This document shows, piece after piece, positions 10,855-35,312 of a DNA stretch of 64,000 nt. The stretch's first letter is position 1, and each line of letters opens with the position of its first letter. Made by a program: the position numbers and the translations under genes. The notes beneath the pieces are model-generated. The model was not told the origin of the DNA. It did not search any database and was given only the letters and a program-made list of their open reading frames with translations. This DNA comes from Oscillospiraceae bacterium. GTDB taxonomy: Bacteria; Bacillota; Clostridia; Oscillospirales; Oscillospiraceae. Location: the NCBI GenBank assembly GCA_022799035.1, contig JAAWNQ010000009.1, forward strand, positions 289-64,288. The letters run 5' to 3'.

Positions 10855-11511
10855 GTGAACAAACCTTTCCGCGCGGTCATTTTTGACATGGACGGGGTCC
10901 TGGTGGACTCTGAATGGCAATATCACCTCCGAAGACTTGATTTTCTCCGGGAGCATGGTGTAGAATTGCCACAGGAAACCCTTCCCCAGGTCATCGGCCG
11001 CCCCTACCAAAGCTATGTGGACATGGTCCTGAGCCTGGATGGAGTCTCCTGGACCCAGGAGGAATATACCCGCCTCTACGATGCCTATACCCAGCGAATC
11101 GGGCGGCTCCACTACGACCAATGCCTGTTCTCAGACGCCCCCGGCGTCCTCTCCCTTCTGAAGCGGAAGGGACTTCGTCTGGGTCTGGCCTCCTCCTCCC
11201 CCCGGAGGGCGGTCTCCCTCATGCTCTCCGACTGCGGCTTCGGGACTATATTTCACTGTGTCTTGGCCCAGGAGGACGTGGAGCAGGTCAAACCCTCCCC
11301 TGAGATCTACCGAAAAGCCGCCGCCCGCCTGGACCTCTCCCCTGAGGAGTGCGTGGCGGTGGAGGATTCGGTCCACGGCATCCGCTCCGCCCTGGACGCG
11401 GGGATGACCGTGGTGGCAAAGACCTCCCCCCATTATGAGCTGGACCAGTCCGCCGCCCACTACCACATCAGACAGCTTCAGGACCTGCCCCCTCTTCTGG
11501 AGCGGCTGTAA
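10855..11511 (+). CDS. HAD-IA family phosphatase
   Basis: IFDMDGVLVDSE, LASSS, KPSPEIY, VEDSVHG; GTG start 10855 after AAGGAGG. Confidence 0.88.
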   Translation: MNKPFRAVIFDMDGVLVDSEWQYHLRRLDFLREHGVELPQETLPQVIGRPYQSYVDMVLSLDGVSWTQEEYTRLYDAYTQRIGRLHYDQCLFSDAPGVLSLLKRKGLRLGLASSSPRRAVSLMLSDCGFGTIFHCVLAQEDVEQVKPSPEIYRKAAARLDLSPEECVAVEDSVHGIRSALDAGMTVVAKTSPHYELDQSAAHYHIRQLQDLPPLLERL

Positions 11512-11545
11512 GCAGGCTAAAACCAATATAGAAGGAGTGTCCCCT

Positions 11546-12619
11546 ATGATAACCCTACTGGAAACCATTCAGCAGATCCCCGGCGTCCTCTCCTCGGTGA
11601 TCGCCAACCGGAAGACCACCTTCCAGGCCCTTCTGGAGGCAGTGGACAGCCGGGAGACCCCCATCACCCAGATCATCCTTCTGGGCTCGGGTACTTCCAA
11701 CACCTCGGGCTGTACCGCCCGGTATTTTGCCGAGCAGGCCGGCGGCCTTCCTGTCCGGGCGGTGATTCCCAATGACTTCTGCTACGCCCCCTTCCATGAT
11801 CCCAACGCCCTCTACCTGATCATCTCCCAGACCGGCACCTCCATCAAGACCAGGGAGTGTCTGGACCTGATCAAGGACTTCGGCGGACTGGCCGCCGCCA
11901 TGAGCGAATCCCCCAACACCCCCATCGCCCAGGCCGCGGAGGTCTATGTGGATATGGGCTGCGGCTATGAGGAGCATAAGACCCGTACCATCGGATACAG
12001 CGCCACCGTCCTCACCATCATGCTCTTGGGCTTGGAGCTGGGGCTCCGGCGGGGCCATCTGACCCAGGCCCAGTATGACTCTTACCTCTCCCAGGCTCAA
12101 AAGCTCCCCGCCGCCATTGAGAGGGTCATCGACGACGCCATGACCTGGATGGACCGGAGCAAGTGGGAGATGCTCCACTCCGACCTTTTGTTCTTCACCG
12201 GGGTCAACTCCCTCTGGGGCGTGGCCCAGGAGGCCGCCTGCAAGGTCTGGGAGCTTCCCAAGCTGGCCTCCATGGGGGTAGACCTGGACGAGAGCATGCA
12301 CGGGCCCAACTTTGGCTTTAACGGCCGTCACTGCGTCCTTGTCCTGGACGATGGCCGGGTGGACAGCCAAAAGGCCGCCGCCATGGTCCGGTACATGAAA
12401 ACCGAATTCAAAAACGGCTTTATGATCGGCCCCGATCCGGTAGGCCCCGGCGACCTGAAGCTGATCCCTCAGAGCGGTCCCTTCTCCTGCCTGGAATTCG
12501 CCGCCGCCATCCAGATCCTGGCCTACCGCCTGGCCCAGGACTGCGGTCGTGACCTCCAATCCCCCCACGACAACAGCGTAATGAACAGCTACTTCATCTC
12601 CCACAGCGACCAAAAATAA
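11546..12619 (+). CDS. Second SIS-domain sugar-phosphate isomerase/deglycase
   Basis: LLGSGTSNTS, ISQTGTS, KTRTIGY, EAACKVWE, DESMHGP; ATG 11546 after GAAGGAG. Confidence 0.85.
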   Translation: MITLLETIQQIPGVLSSVIANRKTTFQALLEAVDSRETPITQIILLGSGTSNTSGCTARYFAEQAGGLPVRAVIPNDFCYAPFHDPNALYLIISQTGTSIKTRECLDLIKDFGGLAAAMSESPNTPIAQAAEVYVDMGCGYEEHKTRTIGYSATVLTIMLLGLELGLRRGHLTQAQYDSYLSQAQKLPAAIERVIDDAMTWMDRSKWEMLHSDLLFFTGVNSLWGVAQEAACKVWELPKLASMGVDLDESMHGPNFGFNGRHCVLVLDDGRVDSQKAAAMVRYMKTEFKNGFMIGPDPVGPGDLKLIPQSGPFSCLEFAAAIQILAYRLAQDCGRDLQSPHDNSVMNSYFISHSDQK

Positions 12620-13551: not shown

Positions 13552-14802
13552 TCAGATCTCCTGTCCACCGCAGAAACGGCGGGCAATATTTCGGGAATCG
13601 CCGCAGTAGATAAGCCGCTGGAGCCGCTCAGCCAGAGTGTACTCCCGGTAGGAGCGAAGCCTCTCGTCCTCCAGGACCAGAGCGTCGAACTGGTAGCCCG
13701 GCTCAAAGCTGCCCACCTTGCCGAAAAAGCCGCCGCCCCCCTTGGTGGCCAGATAAAACGCGTCGGCGGCCGAGAGGGCCCCCTCCCGGGTCAGGGTCTT
13801 GGAGGCCTGGATGGCGGAGGCCATATTCTGGAACATATTGAGGCTGTGTCCCCCGCCGATGTCGCTGCCCAGTCCCACCGGGACCCCCAGCTCCAGGACC
13901 TTCCTCACCGGGAGGAACCGGTCCCCAGGAATGTGCTGGATGGCGTTGGGACAGTAGGCGATATAGACGCCCCGCCGGGCCATGAGTTCAAACTCCTGCT
14001 CCGTGGCATAGGCACAGTGGGCCATCACCGTAGGGGTCTGTCCGAACAGGCCGTATTTGTCCCAGACAAAGCCGTAGAGCTTCTCCACCGGAAACCGGTC
14101 CCGGACCATCTCCAGGTCAAAATCCCCCTCGCACATGTGGGACTGGACGGGAAGGTTCTCCTCCCGGGCCTTATTTCCCAGGAAATCCAGCAGCTCCTCC
14201 GAGGCGGCGGGGATAAACTCAGGGCTGAGGATATACCCCACCCTTCCCTTTCTCTCCCCGGCCCAGCTTATCAGGTCCAGGGTCTGGGCGACAGACTCCT
14301 CCGTCCCCTCCTGGGCCTCACCGAAGGCCCCATGGTCCGAGTTCATCTTGCCCACATAGGCCCCCAGGCCCTTCCTCCCCAGCCGCTCCATCAGGTCCTT
14401 CACCGGCTGGGGACCGGTGGCCCCCATGATGACGGAGCGGGTGATCCCGTTCTCCCACAGCGCCTCCACCAAGTCCTGGTTCACCTGGGCGGCGTACTGG
14501 GGATCGGCGGAGTACCGCTGTTCGGCAGGGTAGGTGCACTGGGTAAACCACTCATCCCCTGTACCGTCATAGCCCAGGCCCGCCGAGGGAAGCTGGGCGG
14601 CGTGGAGGTGCAGGTCGCTGAAGGCAGGGATGAGAAGGCTGTGGCCCAACTCCTCCACCGGATGATCTCTCAGCTCCGGGGGGAGGGTCGGGTATGTCCC
14701 CCGAACCGCGCCGTCCTCCTCCACCGCCACATAGCCCTGGGGGAGGGCGGTGAGGACTCCCAGCTTGGGAGAAAAGAGAATATCGCCGTGATAAAGCTTC
14801 AT
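13552..14802 (-). CDS. Guanine-deaminase-like amidohydrolase
   Basis: DLHLHAAQ, QSHMCE, MAHC, GLGSDIGGG, GSFEPGYQFDAL; but SPEF replaces the usual TPRF. Confidence 0.8.
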   Translation of the reverse strand: MKLYHGDILFSPKLGVLTALPQGYVAVEEDGAVRGTYPTLPPELRDHPVEELGHSLLIPAFSDLHLHAAQLPSAGLGYDGTGDEWFTQCTYPAEQRYSADPQYAAQVNQDLVEALWENGITRSVIMGATGPQPVKDLMERLGRKGLGAYVGKMNSDHGAFGEAQEGTEESVAQTLDLISWAGERKGRVGYILSPEFIPAASEELLDFLGNKAREENLPVQSHMCEGDFDLEMVRDRFPVEKLYGFVWDKYGLFGQTPTVMAHCAYATEQEFELMARRGVYIAYCPNAIQHIPGDRFLPVRKVLELGVPVGLGSDIGGGHSLNMFQNMASAIQASKTLTREGALSAADAFYLATKGGGGFFGKVGSFEPGYQFDALVLEDERLRSYREYTLAERLQRLIYCGDSRNIARRFCGGQEI

Positions 14803-14844
14803 GGTTCTTCCCTCCTTGCCCCGTTCCGGGGCTGTTTTTGGGGA

Positions 14845-16347
14845 TCATTTTTCCCGGTAAAGACCGGACAGTTTGTCATAGCAGGGCTTCAGGCTGGGAT
14901 AAAGCTCCCGGTAAAGGGCGTAGGCCCGGTCATAGACCTTGGCGTGGTCCGGGATGGGACGGTAATCCCGGTATTCCCCCAGAAAGCCCTGTATCTGCTC
15001 CCAGTCTGTAAAGACGCCGCCGCTCATTCCCGCCAGGAAGGCCACCCCCATGGCGCTGCCGGGGTGGGCGGGGAAGGAGCGGACCGGGCGGTTCAGCACG
15101 TCGGCGGCGATCTGGCACCAGAAGGAGCTTTTGGCTCCCCCGTTGGTGGCCAGGACCCGGGTGGGGGTATACCCCGCCTCCTCCAAAAGCTCCACATGAT
15201 GGCGGAATCCGTAGATCACCGACTCCAGCACCGCCCGGAACAGATGCTCCCGGGTGTGGGAGAGGGTAAGGCCAAACAGAACTCCCCGGGCCTGGGGGTC
15301 GAACAGAGGCGTCTTCTCCCCCAGGAAGTAGGGCAAAATGATAAGGCCGTCGGAGGCGGGGGGCAGCTTTTCCGCCTCCCGGTCCATCCTCTGAAAGACC
15401 TGGGGATCCTCGGTACCCAGAATATCCTTGGTGAGCCATTTCACCAGGGAGCCGCTGGCCGCCATACAGCCGTTGATCAGATAGTGGCCGGGAACGATAT
15501 GATAGTCAAAGAACAGCTTGGGATGGGTAGCCAGCCGGTCGGTGCAGAACAGGATATCCCCCGCCCCGCCGAACTTGATGAGCAGCTCTCCGGGCCGGGT
15601 GATCCCCGCCGCCAGGGTGGAGGCCACATGGTCGGCGCTTCCGGCGATGACCGGGATCCCCTGGGGAAGCCCCAGGGACTCTGTTCCCACGGTGGTCCCC
15701 ACCACCTCCCCGGGCTGGGACACCGGGGGAAGAAGTCTGGGGGAGAGGCCAAACCGCTCCATATACTCGGGGATCCACTCCCCCCGGTGGATGTCGTAGA
15801 GGCCGCTCTCGGCGGCCCAGTTCAGCTCCACCTGCCGCTTGCCGGTAAGCCGGTAGACCATGTAGTCGTAGGAGCCCATGACCGTCCTGACCCTGGCAAA
15901 GACCTCCGGCTCCTCCTCCTTGACCCACAGCAGCCGGGGCAGCACATGCTGGGCGTTGGTATATCCCCCGGTCCGGCGGTAAAGCTCCTCCTGGGGCAGC
16001 TCCCCCCTCACCCGGTCAAGCTGGTCCACCGCCCGGGCGTCGTTCTGCTGGATGGTATTGCGGACCGGCTCCCCCTTTTCGTCCAGGAGGACGATGGCGG
16101 GGACCATGCCACTGCAGCCGATGGCCCGAAGGCCGGACAGCTTATCCCCGTGCTCCCCGGCGATCCGGGCCAGGGTGGCCGCGGCGTTGTCCCACCAGAC
16201 CTCCGCCCTCTCCTCCGCCCAACCGGGACGGAGGGAGAGAAGGTCGTGGCCCTGGGTCTCCTGAGCCGTCAGCTCCCCATCCTCTGAGATAAGGACCGTC
16301 TTCACTCCTGTGGTACCCACGTCGATCCCCATGGCATACCGCTTCAT
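14845..16347 (-). CDS. FGGY-family carbohydrate kinase (xylulokinase-like)
   Basis: GIDVGTTGVK, QQNDAR, LPYFLGEKTP, NGGAKSSFWCQIAADV. Confidence 0.9.
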   Translation of the reverse strand: MKRYAMGIDVGTTGVKTVLISEDGELTAQETQGHDLLSLRPGWAEERAEVWWDNAAATLARIAGEHGDKLSGLRAIGCSGMVPAIVLLDEKGEPVRNTIQQNDARAVDQLDRVRGELPQEELYRRTGGYTNAQHVLPRLLWVKEEEPEVFARVRTVMGSYDYMVYRLTGKRQVELNWAAESGLYDIHRGEWIPEYMERFGLSPRLLPPVSQPGEVVGTTVGTESLGLPQGIPVIAGSADHVASTLAAGITRPGELLIKFGGAGDILFCTDRLATHPKLFFDYHIVPGHYLINGCMAASGSLVKWLTKDILGTEDPQVFQRMDREAEKLPPASDGLIILPYFLGEKTPLFDPQARGVLFGLTLSHTREHLFRAVLESVIYGFRHHVELLEEAGYTPTRVLATNGGAKSSFWCQIAADVLNRPVRSFPAHPGSAMGVAFLAGMSGGVFTDWEQIQGFLGEYRDYRPIPDHAKVYDRAYALYRELYPSLKPCYDKLSGLYREK

Positions 16348-16366
16348 AAACCTCCCCCTTCCTTGT

Positions 16367-17023
16367 TTACAGCAGGCCCTTTTCCTCCAGGGTCCCGCGC
16401 AGCTCCTGATAGCTTCCGGCCTCCAAGTCGGCCCCGGTGATATCCTGACGGATGGCCGAGGCCCGGAGGGCCGCCACCGTCATACCCGCCGCCTTGCCCG
16501 CGGCGATACCCACAGGGGAATCCTCCACCACCAGACAGTCCCCGGCCTGGGCCCCCAGGAACCGGGCGGCGGTCAGGTAGGGCTCCGGGGAGGGCTTGGT
16601 ATTGCTCACCATATCCCGGCACACAATGGCGTCGAACCGGCGGACCATGCCGAACCGGTCCAGGGCGGAGAGAACGCTCTTACTGCTGGTGGAGGAGACC
16701 AGGGCGGTCCCGATCCCCCGTTCCCTCAGGTGATCCAGGAATTCCTCCGCCCCGGGGAACAGGGCCAGCTCCGGAGAGTCCAGATAGAAGCTGCCGCAAT
16801 GACGGGCCTCCTCGGCCAAAAACTCCTGAGGGGTCAGGGGAAGATCGTGGGTCCGGACCATGGTCTCTGCGATGGAGACGCTGGTCTTTCCCACAAACTG
16901 CTCCAGCTCCTCCGGAGAGTACTCCACCCCGTAGTGGGCCATGTGCCGCTGGAGGCGCTTCAGATAGAGGGGCTCACTATCCATGAGCACCCCGTCCATA
17001 TCAAAAAGAAAATAGTTCTTCAT
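16367..17023 (-). CDS. HAD-IA family phosphatase
   Basis: LFDMDGVLMDSE, KPSPEPY, VVEDSPVG. Confidence 0.88.
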   Translation of the reverse strand: MKNYFLFDMDGVLMDSEPLYLKRLQRHMAHYGVEYSPEELEQFVGKTSVSIAETMVRTHDLPLTPQEFLAEEARHCGSFYLDSPELALFPGAEEFLDHLRERGIGTALVSSTSSKSVLSALDRFGMVRRFDAIVCRDMVSNTKPSPEPYLTAARFLGAQAGDCLVVEDSPVGIAAGKAAGMTVAALRASAIRQDITGADLEAGSYQELRGTLEEKGLL

Positions 17024-17027
17024 CCGC

Positions 17028-17843
17028 TTACTTCAGACCCTCCCGGAACTTGTGGACCTCCTCCATAAAGGCCAGGACCCGGGATTTGTCCACCTGGTTT
17101 TCAAACACGCCGTCATACTTAAAGGTAGTGCCCACCACGGCGGCGTCGGCCACCGCGAGCTGGTTGGCGATGGTATCCTTCCGGCAGCCGGTGTTGGCGA
17201 TGACCACGGTGCCGGGAACGGTCTTTTTCACCTCGGCCAGGATCTGAGAGTCGGCGGCCACCCCGGCGGTAAGGCCGGAGACACAGAGAGCGTCGGCCTT
17301 GCAGTTGAATACGGTGCTCTTGGCGATCTGGGTGATATCCCGCTGGGCCAGATACTTGGCCGCCTCGGGGACGATGTTGAACAGCAGCTTTACATCCTCG
17401 GCGCCGATGGCCTGACGGTGGCGGGAGACCTCCCCGTAGTTGGTGTTCCACAGGCCGAAGTCGCTGGCGTAGACCCCGGTGAAGATCTCCCGGACAAATT
17501 TGGCCCCGGTGGCGGCGGCCAGATCCAGGGAGGCGGCCCCGTCCCACAGGGCGTTGACCCCGAAGGGGATCTTGATCTCGCTCATCAGCTCGCCAATGAC
17601 CCGGGCCATGGCGGCCACCGTCTCCTTACGCACGTCGGTGAGGTAGGGAAGGCTGAACTCATTGGAGAACATGACCGCGTCCACGCCCCCCTCCTGAAGG
17701 GCCAGGAAATCCTCCCGGGCCTTGTCCACCACCCAGGTCATACCCTTCTGTTTGTCATAGCCGGGATCGCCGGGCATGGCCTGGAGATGACACATGGCGA
17801 TGATGGCCTTCTCTGTCCCGATCACTTCTTTCAACCAACTCAT
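17028..17843 (-). CDS. BtpA/SgcQ family TIM-barrel protein
   Basis: IIAMCHLQAMPGDP, GGVDAVMFSNEFSLPY, FGVNALWD, DALCVSG, AAVVGTTFK. Confidence 0.88.
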   Translation of the reverse strand: MSWLKEVIGTEKAIIAMCHLQAMPGDPGYDKQKGMTWVVDKAREDFLALQEGGVDAVMFSNEFSLPYLTDVRKETVAAMARVIGELMSEIKIPFGVNALWDGAASLDLAAATGAKFVREIFTGVYASDFGLWNTNYGEVSRHRQAIGAEDVKLLFNIVPEAAKYLAQRDITQIAKSTVFNCKADALCVSGLTAGVAADSQILAEVKKTVPGTVVIANTGCRKDTIANQLAVADAAVVGTTFKYDGVFENQVDKSRVLAFMEEVHKFREGLK

Positions 17844-17884
17844 GTTTGTACGCTCCTTCCGATTTCTTTGATGTAAAATATGTC

Positions 17885-18676
17885 CTACGCCAGCTCCAGC
17901 TTGGCGCCTTGGGACTCCAAACGCTCCCGCTTCTCCGGGGCAAGCCCCCGGTCGGTGATGATCCAGTCTATCTCCGCAAGGCGGCAGACCTGGACCGGGG
18001 CCGCCTGTTCAAACTTGGTATGGTCGGCCAGAAGCACCACCCGTTTGCCCGCCCGGACGATGTTCCGCTTGATCCCGGCTTCAAAGAATCCGGTGTTGGA
18101 CACTCCGAAGTCACCGCTCACCGCGTCGGCGGTGAGGAAGGCGGTGTCCACCCGAAGCTGGCTGATAAAGTCCTCCACCATGCCCCCGATCAGAACCTTT
18201 TGGTTGGTCCGCTTCAATCCCCCTGTGAGGACCACGGTGGTGGTGGGATCAAACTCCACGTTGGCCGCCAGATAAAGGTCGTGGGTGATGACGGTAAGGC
18301 CCTTTTTCTCCGCCAGACACAGGGCGAGCTGGTAGGCGGTGGTGCCCGAGTCCAGGATGACCACATCCCCCTCCGACACGTACCGGGCGGCGGCTTGGGC
18401 GATGCACCGCTTCTCCTCCAGCTGGAGGCTCATTTTCTCGTCATAGACCCGCTCGAACATGCTCTTTTCCTGGGGGAAGATGGCCCCTCCGTGGGTCCGC
18501 TTTACCAGTCCCCGGGCGGCCAGGTCGTCCAGGTCCCTGCGGATGGTGGATTCGGATACGTGGAACAGGAGGGCCAGGTCCCTGATGGACACGCTGCCCC
18601 GCTCCTGAACACAGCGCAGCACGTTTTGCAGACGATCCTCCGGGATCGGGTAGTCGGGCAATTGCTTTTCCCTCAT
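17885..18676 (-). CDS. DeoR/GlpR family transcriptional regulator
   Basis: VSESTIRRDLDDL, RTHGGA, ILDSGTT, LADHTKF; ATG 18676 after GGGAGAGG. Confidence 0.92.
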   Translation of the reverse strand: MREKQLPDYPIPEDRLQNVLRCVQERGSVSIRDLALLFHVSESTIRRDLDDLAARGLVKRTHGGAIFPQEKSMFERVYDEKMSLQLEEKRCIAQAAARYVSEGDVVILDSGTTAYQLALCLAEKKGLTVITHDLYLAANVEFDPTTTVVLTGGLKRTNQKVLIGGMVEDFISQLRVDTAFLTADAVSGDFGVSNTGFFEAGIKRNIVRAGKRVVLLADHTKFEQAAPVQVCRLAEIDWIITDRGLAPEKRERLESQGAKLELA

Positions 18677-18991
18677 GCTCTCACCTCTCCCTCCGATTAT
18701 ACCGCAGGGTGGAATATTTTGCAATCATTTTTTGATTCTTCCATAAATCTATCATATTCTTCCACACAGTTTGCAAGCAGAGGCAAAAAGGCCCCCGCCC
18801 TTGGCTTTGACGGGCCTGTTTTCCTCTGTGGGCGGAAGGCAGGGACCCCTTTTCCCCTCTTTTTGACCAAACCGTGAAAAAGAAGACAATGAAAATTTAT
18901 GATTTTCGTAAAATTTGGATTTACTCCTTTCTCATTTTATGCTATGATACAGTTACGAAATTTTGGGATATATTTCAAAGGAAGTTGAGCT

Positions 18992-25940: not shown

Positions 25941-26736
25941 TCAGGGAAAGAAAAACCCGGCCGTCATGTCCAGATAATTTTCTCCCCCATATCCGGGAAA
26001 CCTCTCCCGCACCGCCTTCCGGAATTCCTCCCTGCCTCTGCAGCGGCCCGCCAGGGTCCTTACCTCCCGCAGATACTCCAGCTTTTGGACCACATCCCTC
26101 CGGTCCTCCGGGGTGTGATGGGAGGTGAGGATCAGGGTGAACCCCCGGTCAAGATAGCCCTTCAACTGGGTCTCCATAGCCTCCGCCCCCTGGACCCCGG
26201 GGATGATGGAGTGGCAGTCGTGGCCCAGCATGTGGGTATAGACCGCCCCCATCTCCGGAATGGCGATGTCAAAGGCCTCGTTGGTGGGAATGACCTCCAG
26301 CTCCACCCCGCCTATGACTGTCCGCCCCGGCTCCAAAAGATGGGTAACGGTATAGATCCTGTTGTCAAAGGCCGCCCCAAAAACCTGAGCAAACTGGTCG
26401 ATCAGGGCCTTTCCCCCGCCGGCATGGCCGTACCCGGGCCTCAGGGGTGGCGTACACCCGGACCCCCTCGCAAAACCCGGCCCCCGCCATATGGTAGGCG
26501 GCCACCACCCCAGCCACAGTCAGCCCCGACTCCCTCAGATATTCCTCCAAGGCGGCTATACTCTCCCGGAAGCAGGGCGGCTCGATCACCACCGCCCGGC
26601 CCTCCCTCTCCACCACCAGGGTCTGATCGTTGATGGGGTCCCCGGTCTCATAGGCGTGGAGCTTGGCTGTGCCGAAATCATAGACCCGCATCACTCCCAC
26701 GCTCATGGGCCGGGTCCGGCAGTCGTTTTTGTTCAT
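25941..26736 (-). pseudogene. Frameshifted hypothetical gene (degenerate MBL-fold-like), split near 26433
   Basis: ORF from ATG 26736 (AGGAGG RBS) reads ...YATPEAR; shifting one base at GCC CGG G TAC continues YGHAGGGKALIDQFAQVFGAAFDNRIYTVTHLLEPG into ORF 25941..26336. Could be a sequencing error. Confidence 0.65.
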
Positions 26737-26920
26737 GCTGTTCTCCTCCTGTGGAATATTGGGAGCTTCCGCTCCCTTCCCCTCCATCCTACCGCCTCCC
26801 CCTTCCTTTGTAAAGTACGCACTTTTTTATGCCTAAGTCACCTTTTGGTAACCTATTGACCCTCTTTACCTCATCCGTTATAATGGATGGGACCAGTCTG
26901 AAAAAGGGAGGTGGACCTAT

Positions 26921-27351: not shown

Positions 27352-27383
27352 AACGGGAACGCTTTCAAAAAAGCGTTCCCGTT
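27352..27383. terminator. Terminator hairpin between hxlR and tatC
   Basis: aacgggaacgctt/aagcgttcccgtt stem. Confidence 0.7.
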
Positions 27384-27384: not shown

Positions 27385-28170
27385 TTATTCCTCTGTCTCC
27401 TCTTCCCCGTCCTCCTCCGGCTTTTTCCGCCGGAATTTCATCAGGACCCAGCACAGGAGGATGCTGAACTGGTAAAGGAGCATCATGGGGACAGCCACCA
27501 TGATCTGGGATACGATATCCGGGGGCGTGATCACCGCCGCGACGAAGAAGATGATCACGACAACCACCTTACGGGCCTTCTTCATCCATTCCACCTTCAC
27601 CAATCCCAACTGGGTCAGCAGGACCGAGACCACCGGCAGCTCAAAGACGATGCCGAAGATCACAAAGATGGTAAGGAGAAAGGAGATGTAATTGTGGACT
27701 GAGATGGAGGCCGTGATACCGCTGCCCTCCTTGATGCCGATAAGAAACTCCAGCATGAAGGGGAGCATCAGCTTATAGGCAAAATAGACTCCGCCCACAA
27801 AGCAGATCAGCCCAAAACAGATAGCCAGCACATAGAGAATGTTCTCCCTGGCCTTCAATCCCGGCCGGATAAAGGCCCACACCTGGAACAGGATCACCGG
27901 CAGGGTAACGCAGATGGCCGCCACCAAGGCCACCCCAAAGTGCTCCATCAGCAGCTCCTGGGGGGAGAGGTACACATACCGGTAACCGTAGGTTTTTCCG
28001 ATATCCGTAAGCAGTTTGACGATATCGGCGGCAAAATAGAGGCACACCGTAAAGACCGCCACCAGACACCCCACGCATACCATCAGCCGGTTGCGAAGCT
28101 CCTTCAGGTGGCCGGACAGGGCCATGGTCTTGCCGTCCTGCTCCGCCTTTTTCTTCCGATTTTTTCCCAT
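27385..28170 (-). CDS. tatC: Twin-arginine translocase TatC
   Basis: MALSGHLKELRNRL, FQVWAFIRPGL, FELPVV, AAVITPPD. Confidence 0.95.
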   Translation of the reverse strand: MGKNRKKKAEQDGKTMALSGHLKELRNRLMVCVGCLVAVFTVCLYFAADIVKLLTDIGKTYGYRYVYLSPQELLMEHFGVALVAAICVTLPVILFQVWAFIRPGLKARENILYVLAICFGLICFVGGVYFAYKLMLPFMLEFLIGIKEGSGITASISVHNYISFLLTIFVIFGIVFELPVVSVLLTQLGLVKVEWMKKARKVVVVIIFFVAAVITPPDIVSQIMVAVPMMLLYQFSILLCWVLMKFRRKKPEEDGEEETEE

Positions 28171-28340
28171 TATTCCTCGTTCTTGTCCTTCTTCTCTCCG
28201 TCCTCATCCTCGCTCATACCGGCCCGAAGATTTTTGATGCTCTTTCCCATCATCTTGGTCAGCTTGGGGATCTGGGTGGGGCCAAAGATCACGATGACCA
28301 CCGCCAGGACGATGAGCAGTTCCGTTGTGGAAATCCGCAT
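28170..28340 (-). CDS. tatA: Twin-arginine translocase TatA (56 aa, below ORF-track cutoff)
   Basis: Hand-translated MRISTTELLIVLAVVIVIFGPTQIPKLTKMMGKSIKNLRAG...; AGGAGG RBS; stop overlaps tatC ATG. Confidence 0.88.
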   Translation of the reverse strand: MRISTTELLIVLAVVIVIFGPTQIPKLTKMMGKSIKNLRAGMSEDEDGEKKDKNEE

Positions 28341-28406
28341 GGTTCGTTCCTCCTACTTTTTTGATTGTTTCCAGTTTATCATTTTTGTTACCACTTTGTA
28401 ACCGGT

Positions 28407-28862
28407 TTATCCCGCAGTTTGGGCCTCCTCGGGCTGGGGCTCCTCCGTCCCGCCGGAGGGCTCCTCCGGGGCGGGTTCCTCCCCGGGGGTGGAGTCCTGG
28501 GCGGGCGCTTCCGCCGCCTGGGGGGCTTCGGGCCCCTCCTCTTTTGCCGGCTCCTCCTTGGAGGGAACCTTTTTCTCCGACTGACCCAGATCGGTGAAGG
28601 ACTTTTTGATCTCCTTCACGCTGCCCTCCACCTCATCCTTTAGCTCGGTGATGGGCTCCATGGCCTCCCGCAGGGGCTTCTGGGCTTCCTCCAGGGGCTC
28701 GATAACGCTCTCCCGGATGTCCTTGGTGGCCTCGGAGGAGACCTTTCGGAACTCCTTCAGCGCCTCCCCCAGCTTTTTGGCGTAGTAGGGCATCTTATCC
28801 GGTCCCAGGACCAGCAGAGCCACCGCCAGGATCACCAGGATCTCGGTAAATCCGATTCTCAA
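28407..28862 (-). CDS. tatB: TatB-like subunit with acidic Pro/Ala tail
   Basis: TTG start; GFTEILVILAVALLVLGPDKMP..AKKLG..LKEFRK. Confidence 0.75.
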   Translation of the reverse strand: MRIGFTEILVILAVALLVLGPDKMPYYAKKLGEALKEFRKVSSEATKDIRESVIEPLEEAQKPLREAMEPITELKDEVEGSVKEIKKSFTDLGQSEKKVPSKEEPAKEEGPEAPQAAEAPAQDSTPGEEPAPEEPSGGTEEPQPEEAQTAG

Positions 28863-28976
28863 CCCTTCTTCCCTTCCTTCTTATCCCTTGTGAAAATATC
28901 TTCATAGCGTATTTACTATGATACCATATCCCGCTGAAATGTCAACAAAAAGAGAGGGGACCAATCCTCCGCCCTG

Positions 28977-29011
28977 AAAAGACCCCGCAGGTCAAAAAGA
29001 CCTGCGGGGTC
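28977..29011 (-). terminator. Terminator after flavoprotein 1
   Basis: 13-bp stem gaccccgcaggtc/gacctgcggggtc, A4 tract. Confidence 0.75.
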
Positions 29012-29027
29012 CCTCTGTGTCCTTTGG

Positions 29028-31043
29028 TCAGCCGTCGATACCGGCGGCCACCTTTACCGCCTTGATGGCGTAGGTCATGTTCCGGCCCATGGCGATGCCC
29101 GCCATAAGGCAGGGGTAGTTGTTGACAAAGAAACCGCCGGCGTTGTCGCCGCAGACGAAGAGACCCTCGATGGGCTCCCGGTTCTCATCCACCACCCGGC
29201 CATTCTCATCACAGAGAAGGCCCTGCTCAGTGGTCAGCAGGCATGCACCCATCCAGAAGCTGTAATAGGGGCCCTGCTTTAGGGCGGACAGGCGGTAGGC
29301 GGGCTTGCCGAAGTCCACATCCTCCTGATTCTCGTAAAGCTCGTTATACCGAGCGCAGGTGGCAAGGAAGGTCTCCTTGTCCTTGCCGGAAAAACCCATC
29401 TTGTCCGCCAACTCCTCCAGGGTATCGGCTTTGAAGGCGTTGCCCTTCTGGATCTGACCATCGATCATCTCCAGAGTGCGCTCCCGACTGCCGTTGCGGG
29501 TACCGGCGGAGCAGCCGATGGTATGGAAACGCTGCACATCGTCAAAGAAGTTATCGTCAAAGACGATGGCATACACACCGCCGGGCTGGTTGTAAGCGGC
29601 GTAGCTCATCATGTCGTAAGTGCCGGACTCGTTGGTAAAGCGCTCGCCCCGGCGGTTGACCTTCAGGAAGGGCTGGGAGCCAATGTTGAACTGCCCCTCG
29701 GGGGAAGGGAACACCCGGTCGCCGGTGGAGGTCTTCATATAGCCCGCGTCCACGCCGGGGGCGATGATACCCCGGTCAAAGAGCATGGGGGCGGCCTCCG
29801 CCTGCATGGCGGCTCCGGCCCAGACGCCGGCCTTGATGCCGTCGCCGGTGTCAGTGGGCCAGCCGTTGTTGTTTGCGGTGACGGCGGTGCCCTGAGGATC
29901 CAACTGCTCCATCATATCGGGGTTGTAGGGATAGCCGCCGCAGGCCAGCAGCACGCCCTTGGCGGCGTTGATGCGGATATACTTTCCGGTTTCGGTATTC
30001 TGGGCGATAACGCCGGTGACCTTACCGCCGGATCTCTCCAGCTTCACCAGGGTAGTATTGAAGTCAATGGGCACCCCGGCCTCCTCCTCAATGATCCTGC
30101 AGAAAATGGTGTTCCGGTCCACCTCACCAAAACCCCAAAAGTGCTCCTCCACGGGGAAGAAGAAACGACCGGTATCCTCCTCGGGCCAATGGGCCTCGTC
30201 CCCCACGGTGACATTCACCTTGGCATCGGGGAGATACTGGGCGTAGCAGTCCTTGATAAATTTGTGCATGGCGGCGGACTCGTTGAACCAGGTATCCCAC
30301 AGCTTTAGATTGGTCTTACCGGAGGAGAACCGCTTCAGCTCGTTACGCATGGCGGCCCGGTCCATGGGCTTTGCCCCGGCGGCCAGAGCGTCCTCAGAGT
30401 CACACACACCATACCAGCCCCGGACCCGGGCAGGGGCAGTCCCTTTCTCAATGATACGGAACTTCACGCCGTTCCTGGCGGCGTAGGCTCCGGCGCACAG
30501 ACCGCCGTTGCCCGCACCCACGATAAGGAAGTCGGTATCCCAGGTCTCGTCCACACCGGAAACCTCAGGCTCAGTACCCAGCCAGCCGGCGGGACCGTTT
30601 TCGGCGGAGTCACCCCCGGTGATGACCTCAACGGGAATCTCACCCTTGGCCTGCTGAATACACTTTCCGGCAGCCTCCATGACAGCCTTGGAGGTAAGGG
30701 TGGCGCCGGATACAGTATCAATTTCGTTGCTCTGCTTCTGCATGAGAGCAGCCTTAAGAGTCTCAGCGGCAGCCTGACCGTAATTCTCTGTCTCACCAGA
30801 CAGGTCCAGCACCACGTCGGTGATGGCGTCGGCGGAGAAGGTCATGGTCACCAAGATAGTGCTGACGGCTCCCTGGGCCTTGGAGGTATATGTACCGGGG
30901 GTGTAGAGGCCCTTCTGCTCCGGGGCGGAATTTTCCCCAGGGGTCTTACTGCCGCAGCCGGCCAGCATCCCCAGGGCGGCCATCCCCGCGGCGGCGCCGG
31001 CGCCCTTGATAAACTGGCGGCGGGAGAGTTCTTTTTTGCTCAT
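29028..31043 (-). CDS. Tat-exported lipoprotein flavoenzyme 1 (FMN-binding + FAD_binding_2, flavocytochrome-c/fumarate-reductase superfamily)
   Basis: SRRQFIK twin-Arg, LAGC lipobox, DTVSGAT flavinylation motif, GAGNGG, TGDG, GLFVCGD; ATG 31043 after AAAGGAGG. Confidence 0.9.
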   Translation of the reverse strand: MSKKELSRRQFIKGAGAAAGMAALGMLAGCGSKTPGENSAPEQKGLYTPGTYTSKAQGAVSTILVTMTFSADAITDVVLDLSGETENYGQAAAETLKAALMQKQSNEIDTVSGATLTSKAVMEAAGKCIQQAKGEIPVEVITGGDSAENGPAGWLGTEPEVSGVDETWDTDFLIVGAGNGGLCAGAYAARNGVKFRIIEKGTAPARVRGWYGVCDSEDALAAGAKPMDRAAMRNELKRFSSGKTNLKLWDTWFNESAAMHKFIKDCYAQYLPDAKVNVTVGDEAHWPEEDTGRFFFPVEEHFWGFGEVDRNTIFCRIIEEEAGVPIDFNTTLVKLERSGGKVTGVIAQNTETGKYIRINAAKGVLLACGGYPYNPDMMEQLDPQGTAVTANNNGWPTDTGDGIKAGVWAGAAMQAEAAPMLFDRGIIAPGVDAGYMKTSTGDRVFPSPEGQFNIGSQPFLKVNRRGERFTNESGTYDMMSYAAYNQPGGVYAIVFDDNFFDDVQRFHTIGCSAGTRNGSRERTLEMIDGQIQKGNAFKADTLEELADKMGFSGKDKETFLATCARYNELYENQEDVDFGKPAYRLSALKQGPYYSFWMGACLLTTEQGLLCDENGRVVDENREPIEGLFVCGDNAGGFFVNNYPCLMAGIAMGRNMTYAIKAVKVAAGIDG

Positions 31044-31186
31044 TCCTGTTTCCTCCTTTTCATTGTTGGGCTTTGGTTTTCTTTTTGCCATTGGATTATA
31101 TCAGCTTTACAAAGAGGAAAAAAGGAGATATAATTTTCACATAGCGCAAAAATTATTTGCGTTATGGGGAAGGGAGGACATAGGAA

Positions 31187-32086
31187 ATGGAGATCAACCA
31201 GCTTCGCTACTTTTTGAAAACTGCCCAAACGCTGAATTACAGCAGAGCAGCCCAGGAGCTGTTTACCTCCCGGCAGGCCCTGCGCCATACCCTGGGAACT
31301 TTGGAGCGGGAGCTGGGTCAGAGTCTGTTTTACAACGACCACAACAGGCTTACCCTCACCGAACACGGAGAGTATCTGCGCCAAGCCTTTCAGGGGCTGA
31401 TGGAGACCTTTGACGAGCAGGAGCGGAACATCAAGCTCCTGTTCCAGGGGCAGATCACCCTTCGAGTGGTCTTTTCGGTCAGCCTGTTTCCCTTTCATCT
31501 GCCCAACCTGGACGCCTATCTGGATGAGTTCCTGGAAAAGCACTCCCACATCCGACTGGACCAGGAGCGCCTTCCCGCCGATCAGGTGGTGGACACCGCC
31601 GAAGGGGGAGAGGTGGACCTGGCCTGTGTGCTTCAAATGCCCACACCCCGGCCTGGGTGCAGCGTGGCAGTCCTCCGGACCAGCCCGGTCAGTATAGGCT
31701 CCGGCCCCCAGTCCCCCCTTTTTGGCCGGAAGTCTGTTACCCCTGAGGAGCTGACCGCAGTCCCCCTGGTGGGGATGGGCAGCTTGGACAGGATCGCCAG
31801 ACCGCTGTGGGAGGACTGTGAACGGAGGGGGATCCGGCTGAACTACCGGGTGGTCCCCAGCGCCATTGAAGCCCTGTATCTGACTCAAAACAGCCTCTCC
31901 TCCTGCTTTAACACCTTTTTCAATACCAGGTCCAGCCCGGCCAGTCATTTTGACGAGCCAAGGGCCCATACCCGGCTGGAGGGATATGACTGGGAGCTGG
32001 CCGCCCTGTGTCCCCAGGGGCGGGAGAATCATTCCGCCGCCCGGCTTTTGGCGGAGTTCCTTCGGGAGAAATACAGGGGGAGATAA
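31187..32086 (+). CDS. LysR family regulator 1
   Basis: QLRYFLKTAQTLNYSRAAQELFTSRQAL...LERELG..LF..LTEHG. Confidence 0.92.
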   Translation: MEINQLRYFLKTAQTLNYSRAAQELFTSRQALRHTLGTLERELGQSLFYNDHNRLTLTEHGEYLRQAFQGLMETFDEQERNIKLLFQGQITLRVVFSVSLFPFHLPNLDAYLDEFLEKHSHIRLDQERLPADQVVDTAEGGEVDLACVLQMPTPRPGCSVAVLRTSPVSIGSGPQSPLFGRKSVTPEELTAVPLVGMGSLDRIARPLWEDCERRGIRLNYRVVPSAIEALYLTQNSLSSCFNTFFNTRSSPASHFDEPRAHTRLEGYDWELAALCPQGRENHSAARLLAEFLREKYRGR

Positions 32087-32093
32087 TGAGGAG

Positions 32094-32127
32094 AAAGGAT
32101 CCCGCCCGGGACTGGGCGGGATCCTTT
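32094..32127. terminator. Bidirectional terminator (LysR1 / flavoprotein 2)
   Basis: 14-bp stem aaaggatcccgccc/gggcgggatccttt. Confidence 0.8.
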
Positions 32128-32158
32128 TTCTATCCTTTCAGCCTTTTCTCAGAGGGGC

Positions 32159-34228
32159 TCAGACCCCGGCGGCGCAGTTCTTGCCGGCGATATAGCCGTA
32201 GAACACGCACAGGGAGTGGCTGATGCCCCGGAAGCAGATGGGATATTCCACGGCGTAGCGGCTACCCTGGACGTTGCCGCAGACGTAGAGGCCGGGGATC
32301 AGGTCCCGGGTGGGGCTGGCTGGCTCCCCGGCGGTGAAGGTATGGCAGTTCTCGTCGCTCTCCAGACCGCCCACACAGACCAGCATGGCGGTGGTCCCCC
32401 ACTGGCAGGCGTAGAAGGGCCCCTTCTCAATGGGGAACATCCGCTTGCCCGGTTTGCCGAAATCCTCGTCCTTGCCGGCCCTGGCCAGGTCGTTATATCG
32501 CTGGATGGAGGCCAGGGCGGTATCCAGGGCCTGCCCCTCAAAGCCCATGTTTTTCAGCAGCTCCTCAATGGTCTCCCCCTTGAACTGGAAGGCCTCCGCC
32601 TTCTCAGAGACCTTGGTGTACTGCCGGTCGGTATAGTTGGCGTTGGCGGCGGCGTCCTCCTCCTCGGGGATGATATAGCACAGGCCCCCGTGGTTGGCGG
32701 GCATGAAGGGGATCTGCTGGGGCCAGGCGGAGTCGAAGATCTGGAAGGAGGTGTGCTGGGGCTGGAGCTCGATCTGATTCTCCAGCTGCTGGCCGGGGAT
32801 GGACTCGTTCATGAACCGCTCCCCCCGCAGGTTGATCTGGAGGAAGGGGGTGACCCCCATACCGCTGCCCATATGGTGGGTCATGGGGGCGTGGAAATCC
32901 TGGACCTTGGCCCCGGCCCAGGCGCCCATGCGAAGGCCGTCGCCGGTCTCCACGGTCTTGCCCTCCACATCCACGCCCAGCATACCCATGGCGCCCATGT
33001 TCATGATCTGCTTATCCAGGATCTCAGGGGCGAAATGCTTCATGATCCTCTCATCCCCGGAGTTGTCGCCGGTGGCCAGGATCACCCCCTTGGAGGCGTT
33101 GAGCTGGATATATTGATTGCCGTTCTGGGCGTCCCGGATGATGACGCCGGTGACCCGGCCGGAGGAGTCCTTGAGCAGCTTGGTGCCGAAGCAGCCATAG
33201 AAGGTCTTGGCCCCCTTGCTGATGGCGTCGTTGAGCTGGGCCTCCACGATGAAGCCCTGCTGATCCTTCCGGCTGGAGCGGAACTCCATGGAGGAGGGGA
33301 AGGTGGGGAACTCCTCCTCCCGGTAATCGTAGTGCTCGGGCTGGGGCCAGGCCAGAGGCACCAGAATGCCCTTGTCAAACTGCTCCTGGGTCACCTTCTC
33401 CCGGGTGGAGTCGCAGATGGTCAGGTCGGGGTAGGCCCCAAGGAACCAGTCCATGGCCTCATGGCCGTGCTCGGCCCAGCGCTTGATAATGGCCCGCTTA
33501 TTCCGGTAGGTACACTCCCGCATGAGCCGGTCCACCACCACATCGGTGTCCACGATCCCCTCCCGGCCCCAGCGCTTGTTGAGGGAGCCGTTGAGAAGGG
33601 CGTACTCTCCGGAGCGGCAGTTGAAAGATGCGGATTTCTCTACGATGGCGACCCGGGCTCCCTCCTCAGCGGCGGCCCGGGCGGCGCAGATCCCGGAAAG
33701 TCCCGCGCCGATGATGACCACGTCAAAATCCTGGGTGTCGGAGATGGAGGGGATCTCGGGCTCGGCCCCCAGCCAATCCTCCCCCTCCACGGCGGCGGTC
33801 ACGGGGGCGGAGACGGTGACGCTCTCCCCCTTGGCCTGGGCGATACAGGCCTTGGCGGCCTCCTTTACGGCGTTGGTTGTGACGGTAGCGCCGCTGACAG
33901 CGTCGATATCGGCCCCCTGGGCCTCCAGAATGGCCTTTTTCAGGTCCTCCCCCGCCACCTGACCGATGTTTTCGGTCTCCTTGGACAGGTCCAAGGTCAC
34001 GTCGGTGATGGCGTTGGCGTCAAAGGTCATGGTGACGGTGATCTCCCCCATGCCGGTGGCGGTGGCGCTGTATGTACCGGGGGTATACAGGCCCTTGGCT
34101 CCGGCGGTGGGCTCTGAGACCTTATCCTGGCAGGCCCCCAGGACCCCCATGGCGGCCAGACCCAGCGCCCCGGCGGCGGTGCCCTTCAGGAAATCCCGGC
34201 GGGAAAGCTCCTTGTGCTGCTTTTTCAT
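32159..34228 (-). CDS. Tat-exported lipoprotein flavoenzyme 2 (FMN-binding + FAD_binding_2)
   Basis: SRRDFLK, LGAC lipobox, DAVSGAT, GAGLSG, TGDG, GLYVCGN. Confidence 0.9.
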   Translation of the reverse strand: MKKQHKELSRRDFLKGTAAGALGLAAMGVLGACQDKVSEPTAGAKGLYTPGTYSATATGMGEITVTMTFDANAITDVTLDLSKETENIGQVAGEDLKKAILEAQGADIDAVSGATVTTNAVKEAAKACIAQAKGESVTVSAPVTAAVEGEDWLGAEPEIPSISDTQDFDVVIIGAGLSGICAARAAAEEGARVAIVEKSASFNCRSGEYALLNGSLNKRWGREGIVDTDVVVDRLMRECTYRNKRAIIKRWAEHGHEAMDWFLGAYPDLTICDSTREKVTQEQFDKGILVPLAWPQPEHYDYREEEFPTFPSSMEFRSSRKDQQGFIVEAQLNDAISKGAKTFYGCFGTKLLKDSSGRVTGVIIRDAQNGNQYIQLNASKGVILATGDNSGDERIMKHFAPEILDKQIMNMGAMGMLGVDVEGKTVETGDGLRMGAWAGAKVQDFHAPMTHHMGSGMGVTPFLQINLRGERFMNESIPGQQLENQIELQPQHTSFQIFDSAWPQQIPFMPANHGGLCYIIPEEEDAAANANYTDRQYTKVSEKAEAFQFKGETIEELLKNMGFEGQALDTALASIQRYNDLARAGKDEDFGKPGKRMFPIEKGPFYACQWGTTAMLVCVGGLESDENCHTFTAGEPASPTRDLIPGLYVCGNVQGSRYAVEYPICFRGISHSLCVFYGYIAGKNCAAGV

Positions 34229-34294
34229 ACGACTCTCTCCTTCTTATACCCTATACAGGGCTATGATCTGTCCTATTATACTATCGTTAACCCC

Positions 34295-34323
34295 TTGACA
34301 ATCAATTCCGTTTCCGCTATGAT
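34295..34323 (+). promoter_or_regulatory. SigA-type promoter of LysR2
   Basis: TTGACA (34295-34300) - 17 nt - TATGAT (34318-34323). Confidence 0.7.
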
Positions 34324-34357
34324 TAAGTCGAAAACGGAATCAGTAGGGGGGATGGGA

Positions 34358-35263
34358 ATGGAGACAGGCCATGTGGAGGAGTTTCTGGTGCTGGTGGAGG
34401 AGAGGAACTACTGGCGGGCGGCGGAGAAGCTGTATATGAACCAGTCCACTCTCTCCAAGCACATCAAGGCTTTGGAGAGGGAGCTGGAGGGGGAGCTGCT
34501 CACCCGCACCACCCGGTCGGTGGAGCTGACCGACTATGGGCGGGCCTTTCTCCCCTACGCCCGGGATCTGGCCCGGATCCAGAGCGGATGTACCGCCGCC
34601 CTGCGGCGGCTGCGGGAGAGCCACAGCGGTCAGGTGCGGCTCTACTGTATCCCGGCTTTGGCCCAGTATGGGCTGACAAAGCTGCTGGTGGGCTTCCACA
34701 GGGCTTACCCCGATTTTTATCTCCGGGTGGAGGAGACCAGCTCCTATCACTGCCGGAAGGCTTTGGAGCAGCGGGAGTGCGAGCTGGCCCTCTGCTGGGA
34801 GATGGACCCGGCTATTTTTCCCGGCATGGGAAAGGCCCTGACCAGCCTCCCCCTGGTCCGGGACCGGCTCATCCTGACGGTGGTCCGGGAGCATCCCTTG
34901 GCGGGGCGGGAGCGCATATCCTTGGGGGAGCTGGAGAGCAGCGACGTATGTCTGTTCAAAGGGTATCCGGCGGAGCTGGCCCGGGAGAGCTGTCGGCGGG
35001 CCGGTTTTTCCCTCCGGCCGGCCTGCGTCACCGACGCCACCTCCAACATCCTGGATGTGCTTCGGGAGGAGAATCATGTGGCCTTGCTGCCCGAGGGATT
35101 GATCCGGCACGCCATGGACTTCTCCCCGGCGGTGAGGGAGGGGTACACTTTGATAGAGCTGGAGGAAACGGTGGAGCTGGTCCTGTCCCTGAGTCATCTG
35201 GAGGAGGTCCCCCTGTCGGCGGCGGGACAGAGGTTTTGGGAGCTTTTTATCCAGGCAAAGTAA
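34358..35263 (+). CDS. LysR family regulator 2
   Basis: EFLVLVEERNYWRAAEKLYMNQSTLSKHIKALERELEGELLTRTTRSVELT; start 34352 or 34358. Confidence 0.92.
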   Translation: METGHVEEFLVLVEERNYWRAAEKLYMNQSTLSKHIKALERELEGELLTRTTRSVELTDYGRAFLPYARDLARIQSGCTAALRRLRESHSGQVRLYCIPALAQYGLTKLLVGFHRAYPDFYLRVEETSSYHCRKALEQRECELALCWEMDPAIFPGMGKALTSLPLVRDRLILTVVREHPLAGRERISLGELESSDVCLFKGYPAELARESCRRAGFSLRPACVTDATSNILDVLREENHVALLPEGLIRHAMDFSPAVREGYTLIELEETVELVLSLSHLEEVPLSAAGQRFWELFIQAK

Positions 35264-35312
35264 AAAGCCCCTGTGGAGGCTCCGATACTCGGGGCTTCCA
35301 CAGGGGCTTTTT
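35262..35312. terminator. Bidirectional terminator (LysR2 / rplQ)
   Basis: Long stem aaaagcccctgtggaggctccga/tcggggcttccacaggggctttt. Confidence 0.85.

Follow-up and report, generated by a model that had tools for sequence, protein, structure and literature searches.

Two LysR-paired flavoenzyme cassettes beside tat genes in a mouse-gut Oscillospiraceae bacterium: likely inducible cell-surface ene-reductases and their probable translocase

We analyzed a stretch of 64,000 nucleotides (nt) from an Oscillospiraceae bacterium (assembly GCA_022799035.1, contig JAAWNQ010000009.1; the whole stretch is hereafter called the window), in which positions 27385–35263 hold tatC, tatA and a tatB-like gene of the twin-arginine translocation (Tat) system, followed by two cassettes of a LysR-type regulator and a flavoenzyme. 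We consider it likely that this locus specifies two independent, substrate-inducible cell-surface ene-reductases, here named E1 and E2, together with the translocase that most likely exports them. The gene content was established by open reading frame (ORF) map, Pfam and NCBIfam: in each cassette the LysR gene diverges from the gene of an enzyme of ~680 amino acids (aa), hairpin terminators part the units, and the Tat/cassette block is flanked by an F-type ATP synthase operon (plus an HxlR gene and two small ORFs) and by the rplQ-rpoA-rpsD ribosomal cluster. An original prediction, made from the sequence alone, had described the same anatomy, and the Tat genes, domains, motifs, export signals, divergent LysR genes and terminators were all found where it had put them. 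The genes of the locus and the key positions of the two enzymes are:

27385–28170, minus strand: tatC, 261 aa (PF00902, E 1.1e-61; TIGR00945, 198.8 bits against a cutoff of 132.7).
28170–28340, minus strand: tatA, 56 aa (PF02416; TIGR01411, 55 bits against a cutoff of 53.9; 'FGP' hinge in the sequence).
28407–28862, minus strand: tatB-like second gene of the TatA/B family, 151 aa, TTG start (PF02416, 53.6 bits; acidic Pro/Glu-rich tail).
29028–31043, minus strand: E1, Tat-signal lipoprotein flavoenzyme, 671 aa (Pfam, motifs, start-codon analysis).
31017–31022, minus strand: E1 twin-arginine motif, RR8-9, in SRRQFIK.
30954–30956, minus strand: E1 lipobox Cys30, in LAGC.
30699–30701, minus strand: E1 predicted flavinylated Thr115, in DTVSGAT (residues 109–115).
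30501–30518, minus strand: E1 GxGxxG motif.
29616–29618, minus strand: E1 Tyr476, active-site position by alignment.
29115–29117, minus strand: E1 Tyr643, active-site position by alignment.
31187–32086, plus strand: LysR1, 299 aa, divergent from E1 (HTH_1 and LysR_substrate).
32159–34228, minus strand: E2, Tat-signal lipoprotein flavoenzyme, 689 aa (Pfam, motifs).
34196–34201, minus strand: E2 twin-arginine motif, RR10-11, in SRRDFLK.
34130–34132, minus strand: E2 lipobox Cys33, in LGAC.
33884–33886, minus strand: E2 predicted flavinylated Thr115, in DAVSGAT (residues 109–115).
32792–32794, minus strand: E2 Gly479, active-site position by alignment.
32243–32245, minus strand: E2 Tyr662, active-site position by alignment.
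34358–35263, plus strand: LysR2, 301 aa, divergent from E2 (HTH_1, 64.5 bits; LysR_substrate, 86.6 bits), with its start codon set by family alignments and public gene calls.

Both enzymes combine the same three Pfam domains above the gathering thresholds (GA): TAT_signal (PF10518; GA 22.7) with 30.7 bits in E1 and 25.7 bits in E2, FMN_bind (PF04205; GA 22) with 43 and 48 bits, and FAD_binding_2 (PF00890; GA 20.4) with 119.1 and 115.5 bits. Export signals were judged from PF10518 scores, RR motifs and lipobox motifs, and among window ORFs of at least 150 aa only E1 and E2 carry [ST]RRx[FLIVM][LIVMF]. The 671-aa form of E1 is preceded by a GGAGGA Shine-Dalgarno sequence, and all orthologs begin with MSKKELSRR; the 687-aa start at 31091 chosen in the original prediction was rejected as wrong, since it has no Shine-Dalgarno sequence, coincides with or precedes the predicted transcription start, and is not one that the orthologs share. 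An AlphaFold (AF2) model of E1 (pLDDT 86.7, pTM 0.84) has its best Foldseek match in the urocanate reductase UrdA (6t86, TMt 0.87); flavocytochrome c3, KstD and cyclohexanone dehydrogenase come next, and a delta4-(5alpha)-dehydrogenase is also among the fold matches. E1 and E2 are members of the described superfamily of extracytosolic flavinylated flavin reductases (Light, Méheust, Little et al.). The enzymes are 33% and the two LysR proteins 24% identical to each other; both pairs are old paralogs and not products of a recent duplication.

Active-site alignments were anchored on the RFxNE and GL[FY]xxG[DE] motifs, with Fcc3 and AcmB (7p18) as references. The proton-donor Arg401/402 of Fcc3 aligns ungapped to Tyr476 in E1 and to Gly479 in E2, and its carboxylate-clamp Arg544/545 aligns to Tyr643 in E1, again ungapped, and to Tyr662 in E2; HMMER puts a 3-residue gap at this last position, which was assigned by alignment A1 and by the ungapped register counted from GL[FY]..G. 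Both enzymes are thus devoid of the two catalytic arginines (Arg402 and Arg545, Fcc3 numbering) that mark fumarate and urocanate reductases in the strict sense (Fcc3, UrdA, clade 1). In the alignment to AcmB 7p18, Tyr476 and Tyr643 of E1 fall on 'ASPY' and 'AYPG' of AcmB/KstD, the motifs that hold the catalytic Tyr pair of KstD; equivalents of KstD Tyr318 and Tyr487 are both present in E1, and E2 has the second only. These sites are invariant within each ortholog group, the E1-type signature G-T-Y-D being found in 36 of 36 orthologs, the E2-type signature I-P-G-Q in 30 of 30 and Y-P in all 66. The predicted flavinylated Thr/Ser is likewise kept in 66 of 66 orthologs, and RR in 35 of the 36 E1-type and 22 of the 30 E2-type sequences, with RK in six further E2-type sequences.

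E1 and E2 probably serve two different acceptors, because they use different non-arginine active sites. The proposal of two inducible reductases for two acceptors had already been made in the original prediction, and it fits the 33% identity, the group-specific invariant active-site signatures and the mutually exclusive metatranscriptome coverage described below. Judged from the residues at these positions, the acceptors are probably neither fumarate nor urocanate, and enones, or other compounds without a carboxylate clamp of the fumarate/urocanate type, are more likely; for E1, the acceptor is possibly an enone. Cinnamate-type enoates may also be considered. Tyr replaces Arg at the clamp position in several proven cinnamate reductase clades (Little et al., bioRxiv 10.1101/2022.12.26.521950). 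The same study describes secreted flavin reductases near regulators as acceptor-induced and acceptor-specific, with Tyr-for-Arg clades being active (bioRxiv 10.1101/2022.12.26.521950). Reductases for urocanate and the other substrates that the original prediction had named as examples are poor guides here, both site-defining arginines being replaced. Assignment to VprA (NF053717, vinyl phenol reductase) failed: this model is the top NCBIfam match for both enzymes, at 157.4 bits (E1) and 129.5 bits (E2) against a cutoff of 600. Cgr2 is not known to have an FMN_bind domain. As possible relatives we also looked at gut steroid reductases (OsrA/OsrB and the 5beta- and delta6-reductases), a lead that was dropped: the 5beta-reductase paper assigns its enzymes to the Old Yellow Enzyme family, and flavoproteins of the fumarate-reductase/KstD type come up in neither paper.

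The predicted promoters, the candidate operator and the terminators of the locus are:

27352–27383, no strand assigned: hairpin terminator between the convergent HxlR gene and tatC, 14-base-pair (bp) stem, AACGGGAACGCTTT-CAAA-AAAGCGTTCCCGTT.
28918–28945, minus strand: predicted promoter of the tat operon, TTGACA, 16 nt, TG-n-TATCAT (11/12 matches, with TG).
28977–29011, minus strand: intrinsic terminator after E1, 13-bp GC-rich stem and T-run, GACCCCGCAGGTC-TTTTT-GACCTGCGGGGTC-TTTT.
31095–31103, minus strand: predicted E1 promoter, extended -10 TGATATAAT, from the sequence, with a transcription start near 31088.
31106–31134, plus strand: predicted lysR1 promoter, TTTACA, 17 nt, TATAAT (11/12 matches; conserved in orthologs).
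31141–31165, no strand assigned: candidate LysR1 operator, dyad ATAGCGCAAA-N5-TTTGCGTTAT, centred at about -65 from the predicted E1 start and within the lysR1 leader.
32097–32129, no strand assigned: bidirectional terminator between the convergent lysR1 and E2, GGATCCCGCCC-GGGACT-GGGCGGGATCC-TTTTT.
34295–34323, plus strand: predicted lysR2 promoter, TTGACA, 17 nt, TATGAT, spanned by the inverted repeat ATTCCGTTT...AAACGGAAT.
35264–35310, no strand assigned: bidirectional terminator between lysR2 and rplQ, 20-bp stem.

The predicted promoters of E1 and lysR1 stand back to back. The E1 promoter block, TGTAAAGCTGATATAAT, is kept together with the dyad core in five orthologous intergenic regions, though the LysR1 proteins concerned are only 52–58% identical; the ortholog loci L002, L003, L004 (two copies) and L005 have the core itself, ACGCAA-N7-9-TTGCG, between LysR1 and E1. 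This arrangement is the one classically seen with LysR proteins that activate a target and repress their own gene. For the E2 cassette just the promoter block is conserved, including the lysR2 -35 block in L023. The inverted repeat that spans the lysR2 promoter was also tried as a LysR2 operator; it is partly kept in L023 and absent in L026, and stays a candidate. In L004, the LysR1-E1 intergenic region (9459–10001) has grown to 542 bp and contains a GC-rich, repeat-like insert upstream of the conserved promoter/operator block.

Public mouse-gut metatranscriptomes indicate that E1 and E2 are transcribed in vivo, and independently of each other. Metatranscriptomes X25, X26, X29 and X32 of one study and X27 of another cover E1, with E2 near zero, and in X40 and X47 of a third study E2 is covered, with E1 near zero. 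The E1 contigs tile ~29.01–31.01 kb and end at 29013–29022 by the terminator, and the tat genes are thinner in depth. RNA contigs from X25, X26, X28 and X29 additionally contain joints that skip 29533–30265 and 30294–34018, the latter joining E1 to E2; these joints are probably assembly chimeras, formed via short words common to both paralogs.

Of the translocase proteins, TatC and TatA both exceed their curated cutoffs. The third protein scores slightly under the TatB cutoff (TIGR01410, 51.9 bits against 56.5), and its N-terminus, RIGFTEILVILAVALLVLGP, shows the TatB-like 'GFTE...LGP'. Firmicutes usually have TatA and TatC only. The tatB-like gene is kept at the same position in L013 and L023; its length varies between 140 and 172 aa in L013, L014, L023 and L024.

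The host of E1 and E2 is a mouse-gut Oscillospiraceae bacterium. Its best genome matches in a contig search are Pseudoflavonifractor and Oscillospiraceae metagenome-assembled genomes (MAGs) at 85–87%, and the nearest named relative by RpoA is Vermiculatibacterium agrestimuris (93%); the exact E2 protein occurs in 51 blocks of the assembly collection, and all 24 contigs read are from a mouse-gut metagenome or MAG. The exact proteins are also present on a 487,833-bp contig and in MAG GCA_949747225.1. Both enzymes belong to large ortholog groups of Oscillospiraceae, Lachnospiraceae and other Clostridia (60–90% identity, thousands of matches), with 2,697 member sequences in one E2-type 90% cluster. 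The slot between rplQ and tatBAC is occupied by both cassettes in the window and by E1 only or E2 only in related species: L013 (RpoA 94%) reads rplQ, aldose epimerase, LysR1-E1, tatB-like, tatA, tatC, and L023/L024 (E2 89%) read rplQ, LysR2-E2, tatB-like, tatA, tatC. In L003 and L004, E1 lies in tandem with a 66% paralog, each having its own LysR. Further afield, the regulators change. LysR1 orthologs (52–58% identity) are always divergent from E1 orthologs, and the very abundant 76% E2 ortholog of L026 has a divergent LysR-family gene alongside; 65% E1 orthologs of more distant lineages are paired with MerR, and in L025 a 68% E2 ortholog has an AraC regulator and tatA directly upstream. The conserved unit is therefore regulator plus reductase, with LysR, MerR or AraC depending on the lineage. 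The neighbours of distant orthologs (sugar genes, thioredoxin, his operon) give no consistent substrate hint. In L028 (Eubacteriales, 65% E1 ortholog), a protein with TAT_signal and FAD_binding_2 but no FMN_bind domain is encoded 7 kb off, at 16669–17980.

On the model we favor, the LysR protein would sense a small molecule and activate the divergent, monocistronic enzyme gene. The enzyme would bind FAD and fold in the cytoplasm, and its signal and the synteny suggest that it leaves via the adjacent TatA/TatB-like/TatC, to be held by a lipid anchor at Cys30 (E1) or Cys33 (E2) on the outward side of the membrane. An ApbE-type transferase from elsewhere would put FMN on Thr115 of the FMN_bind domain, where the motif for this modification is present. 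The covalent FMN would then receive electrons from a membrane donor and hand them via FAD to an organic acceptor outside the cell, reducing one of its C=C bonds; the role of the enzymes would be the extracellular disposal of reducing equivalents. A redox-balancing electron sink is equally compatible with the data as energy-conserving respiration.

Several observations weigh against this model. Pfam scans of the non-ribosomal ORFs of the 64-kb window, in which ORFs of the ribosomal cluster were judged by gene order and Pfam tables and a few short ORFs left out, identified no gene for ApbE, Rnf/Nqr, extracellular electron transfer (EET), a cytochrome or quinone biosynthesis. The missing ApbE, quinone and cytochrome partners had been remarked upon in the original prediction; its description of the module as 'self-contained' does not hold, as neither the flavin transferase nor the electron donor is encoded in the window. 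The expression data come from assembled contigs and are qualitative, depth being a poor measure and DNA carry-over possible. The lipobox Cys is absent from part of the orthologs, and in all sources and literature searched no member of either ortholog group bears a functional name. At its catalytic positions E1 has the residues of dehydrogenases (KstD, AcmB, cyclohexanone dehydrogenase), and the sequence leaves the catalytic direction unset. Finally, Tat adjacency is confined to one clade of close relatives and one distant tatA case, the other orthologs having no tat gene nearby.

With respect to electron supply, proteins of the class combining FMN_bind with a fumarate-reductase-like part are flavinylated, and the electron-transport components and ApbE are typically encoded elsewhere in the genome (PMC8238504). 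Among the compared ortholog loci, no electron-supply partner gene travels with the cassette. Clusters of ApbE-linked DUF4405 cytochrome b have been reported for an Oscillospiraceae bacterium (PMC11334425), and such a cluster, or Rnf, may be the donor in Oscillospiraceae. A stronger version of the model, and the one taken in the original prediction, is true anaerobic respiration, in which E1 and E2 are terminal reductases of an energy-conserving chain and the two acceptors give ATP or growth yield. The identical domain architecture in Pfam speaks for it, and we hold it to be a possibility of some standing, if a doubtful one: no gene in the window ties E1 or E2 to a proton- or sodium-motive step, and an extracytoplasmic reductase conserves energy only if the donor branch does. 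Human-gut Oscillospiraceae, moreover, are 'low reductase' genomes in Table S2 of Little et al., mostly with 1–3 flavin reductases per genome and 0–1 secreted (bioRxiv 10.1101/2022.12.26.521950).

The adjacency of tat genes and cassettes could also be coincidental, with tatBAC being a general Tat system beside a variable region, E1 and E2 two of its many substrates, and no module at all. The tat genes do have their own promoter and E1 its own terminator, and no tat genes are found near most orthologs elsewhere. Yet three related species hold a Tat-signal flavoenzyme cassette immediately upstream of tatBAC, though the cassettes differ, a distant lineage has tatA directly upstream of its E2 ortholog, and tat operons linked to a substrate gene are known from Firmicutes; on balance, we judge coincidence rather unlikely. 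At the other extreme, the rplQ-tatBAC interval of this Oscillospiraceae clade might be a dedicated 'cargo slot', in which a three-component Tat system sits beside exchangeable cassettes of regulator and flavoreductase, the enzymes having Tyr-type active sites, being fed by a quinone-independent membrane donor (e.g., Rnf- or DUF4405/ApbE-linked) and acting as an inducible extracellular electron sink for host or diet enones, such as steroid or bile-acid intermediates. We put this forward as speculation with the odds clearly against it; if it were true, supposed plain fermenters would gain an inducible extracellular electron sink.

Least convincing is the view that E1, and perhaps E2, are oxidative dehydrogenases that desaturate an extracellular ketone and pass the electrons via FAD and FMN into the membrane, for which one may cite the KstD/AcmB Tyr pair in E1, several KstD models among the NCBIfam matches and the Foldseek matches to KstD, delta4-(5alpha)-dehydrogenase and cyclohexanone dehydrogenase. 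KstD-type dehydrogenases are not known to have FMN_bind domains. We regard this view as improbable, since the KstD equivalog test failed by a wide margin (best model PRK12844, 139.6 bits for E1 and 81.8 for E2 against a cutoff of 789), signal peptides are missing from the superfamily's known dehydrogenases (Table S1 of Little et al.), a strictly anaerobic gut fermenter offers no obvious high-potential acceptor, and Tyr-type sites occur in proven reductases (the clade 2–4 cinnamate reductases and BaiJ).

The flavin reductase class as such is already well described, with 3,070 proteins that combine FMN_bind and a fumarate-reductase-like part in 1,236 genomes (Méheust et al.), and the features of E1 and E2 are variations within it. 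The locus is a clean, well-insulated and evidently expressed example that holds no surprise for a specialist, and the current picture of the enzyme class is unchanged. It can nevertheless serve as a way into two ortholog groups that are large and uncharacterised. If the acceptors were found, a widespread gut enzyme would gain a function, and new conversions of compounds from the diet or the host might come to light. The G-T-Y-D/Y-P and I-P-G-Q/Y-P signatures provide simple markers to sort such enzymes, and, as some studies show E1 transcripts and another shows E2 transcripts, comparing their diets or conditions is a practical way to the inducers. The Tat linkage further suggests that FAD is loaded in the cytoplasm, unlike in the Sec-type enzymes of Listeria and Shewanella, which matters for heterologous expression.

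The remainder of the window was surveyed alongside. The lower GC content of the E1/tat segment was considered as a mark of transfer and rejected, the GC difference falling inside the variation of the window. An Rfam scan for riboswitches or other known RNAs found none in the intergenic regions of the locus, and its sole match in the window is the following:

52006–52076, minus strand: S10-Clostridia ribosomal-protein leader (RF03136, 36.5 bits).

Shikimate pathway genes and an Na/Pi transporter are among the other non-ribosomal ORFs with Pfam matches. Between the HxlR gene and atpC, at 25941–26787 on the minus strand, lie adjacent ORFs of 131 and 140 aa that have no Pfam match; this pair is called as one 282-aa gene in L021, another assembly covering this locus, and the window therefore carries a frameshift or strain variant here. 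A region at 4578–12619, comprising a GntR/UTRA regulator, a four-gene mannose-family PTS and NanE-like, TPR, two SIS-domain and HAD genes, looks like an island for the utilisation of amino sugars or Amadori compounds (fructoselysine-type). Upstream of the atp operon (13552–18724, minus strand), genes for a DeoR regulator, BtpA, a HAD protein, an FGGY kinase and an amidohydrolase are clustered, and an ORF of more than 1,210 aa that runs off the window (1–3633, minus strand; a YDG domain being the sole Pfam match) may encode a surface protein.

Among known systems, FrdA of Listeria monocytogenes and UrdA of Shewanella oneidensis, the extracytosolic, ApbE-flavinylated fumarate and urocanate reductases, resemble E1 and E2 in that they are of the exported lipoprotein type, with an N-terminal FMN_bind domain, an [S/T]GA[S/T] motif and then FAD_binding_2, and in that the genes for their donor and for ApbE lie at other places of the genome; none is present in the window for E1 and E2. 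Both are predicted to be Sec/SPII substrates (Table S1 of Little et al.), whereas in E1 and E2 a twin-arginine signal is joined by a lipobox, and their genes adjoin tat genes. Identity is ~21–22%, the two active-site arginines are replaced in E1 (Tyr/Tyr) and E2 (Gly/Tyr), and the LysR pairing and the three-component tat operon alongside set the window apart as well.

The arsenals of Eggerthella lenta, Sutterella wadsworthensis and Holdemania filiformis (Cir, Crd, Ird, UrdA) consist of secreted PF00890 enzymes encoded next to regulators, as are E1 and E2, and clades 2–4 of Little et al. have Tyr for Arg at the carboxylate-clamp position, as here. These genomes hold tens of paralogs, in contrast to the two in the window with their LysR-type regulators and adjacent tat genes. 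KstD, AcmB and cyclohexanone dehydrogenase share the fold of E1, and its Tyr pair aligns with that of AcmB/KstD; E2 lacks the first Tyr. They run oxidatively, and KstD, unlike E1 and E2, has no signal peptide (Table S1 of Little et al.). BaiJ and BaiP, the bile-acid 3-oxo-delta4 5alpha-reductases of Lachnoclostridium scindens (PMC9645264), reduce enones with a layout of FMN_bind-like and FAD_binding_2 domains, and BaiJ shares with E1 and E2 an E-Y-P-x-C motif at the Arg545 position. Membership of E1 and E2 among BaiP/BaiJ was nevertheless rejected: as translated from published synthetic genes, these proteins are 25–28% identical to E1 and E2, have no signal peptide and carry degenerate SGAT motifs (VVGAEV, VNGADL), and they are presumably cytoplasmic and unflavinylated. 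The phoD-tatAd-tatCd operon of Bacillus subtilis is a substrate-linked tat operon of the Firmicutes, in which translocase genes stand beside the gene of a folded or cofactor-bearing substrate. By comparison, the window holds three components, TatA, TatB-like and TatC, and the neighbouring cassette is exchangeable between species.

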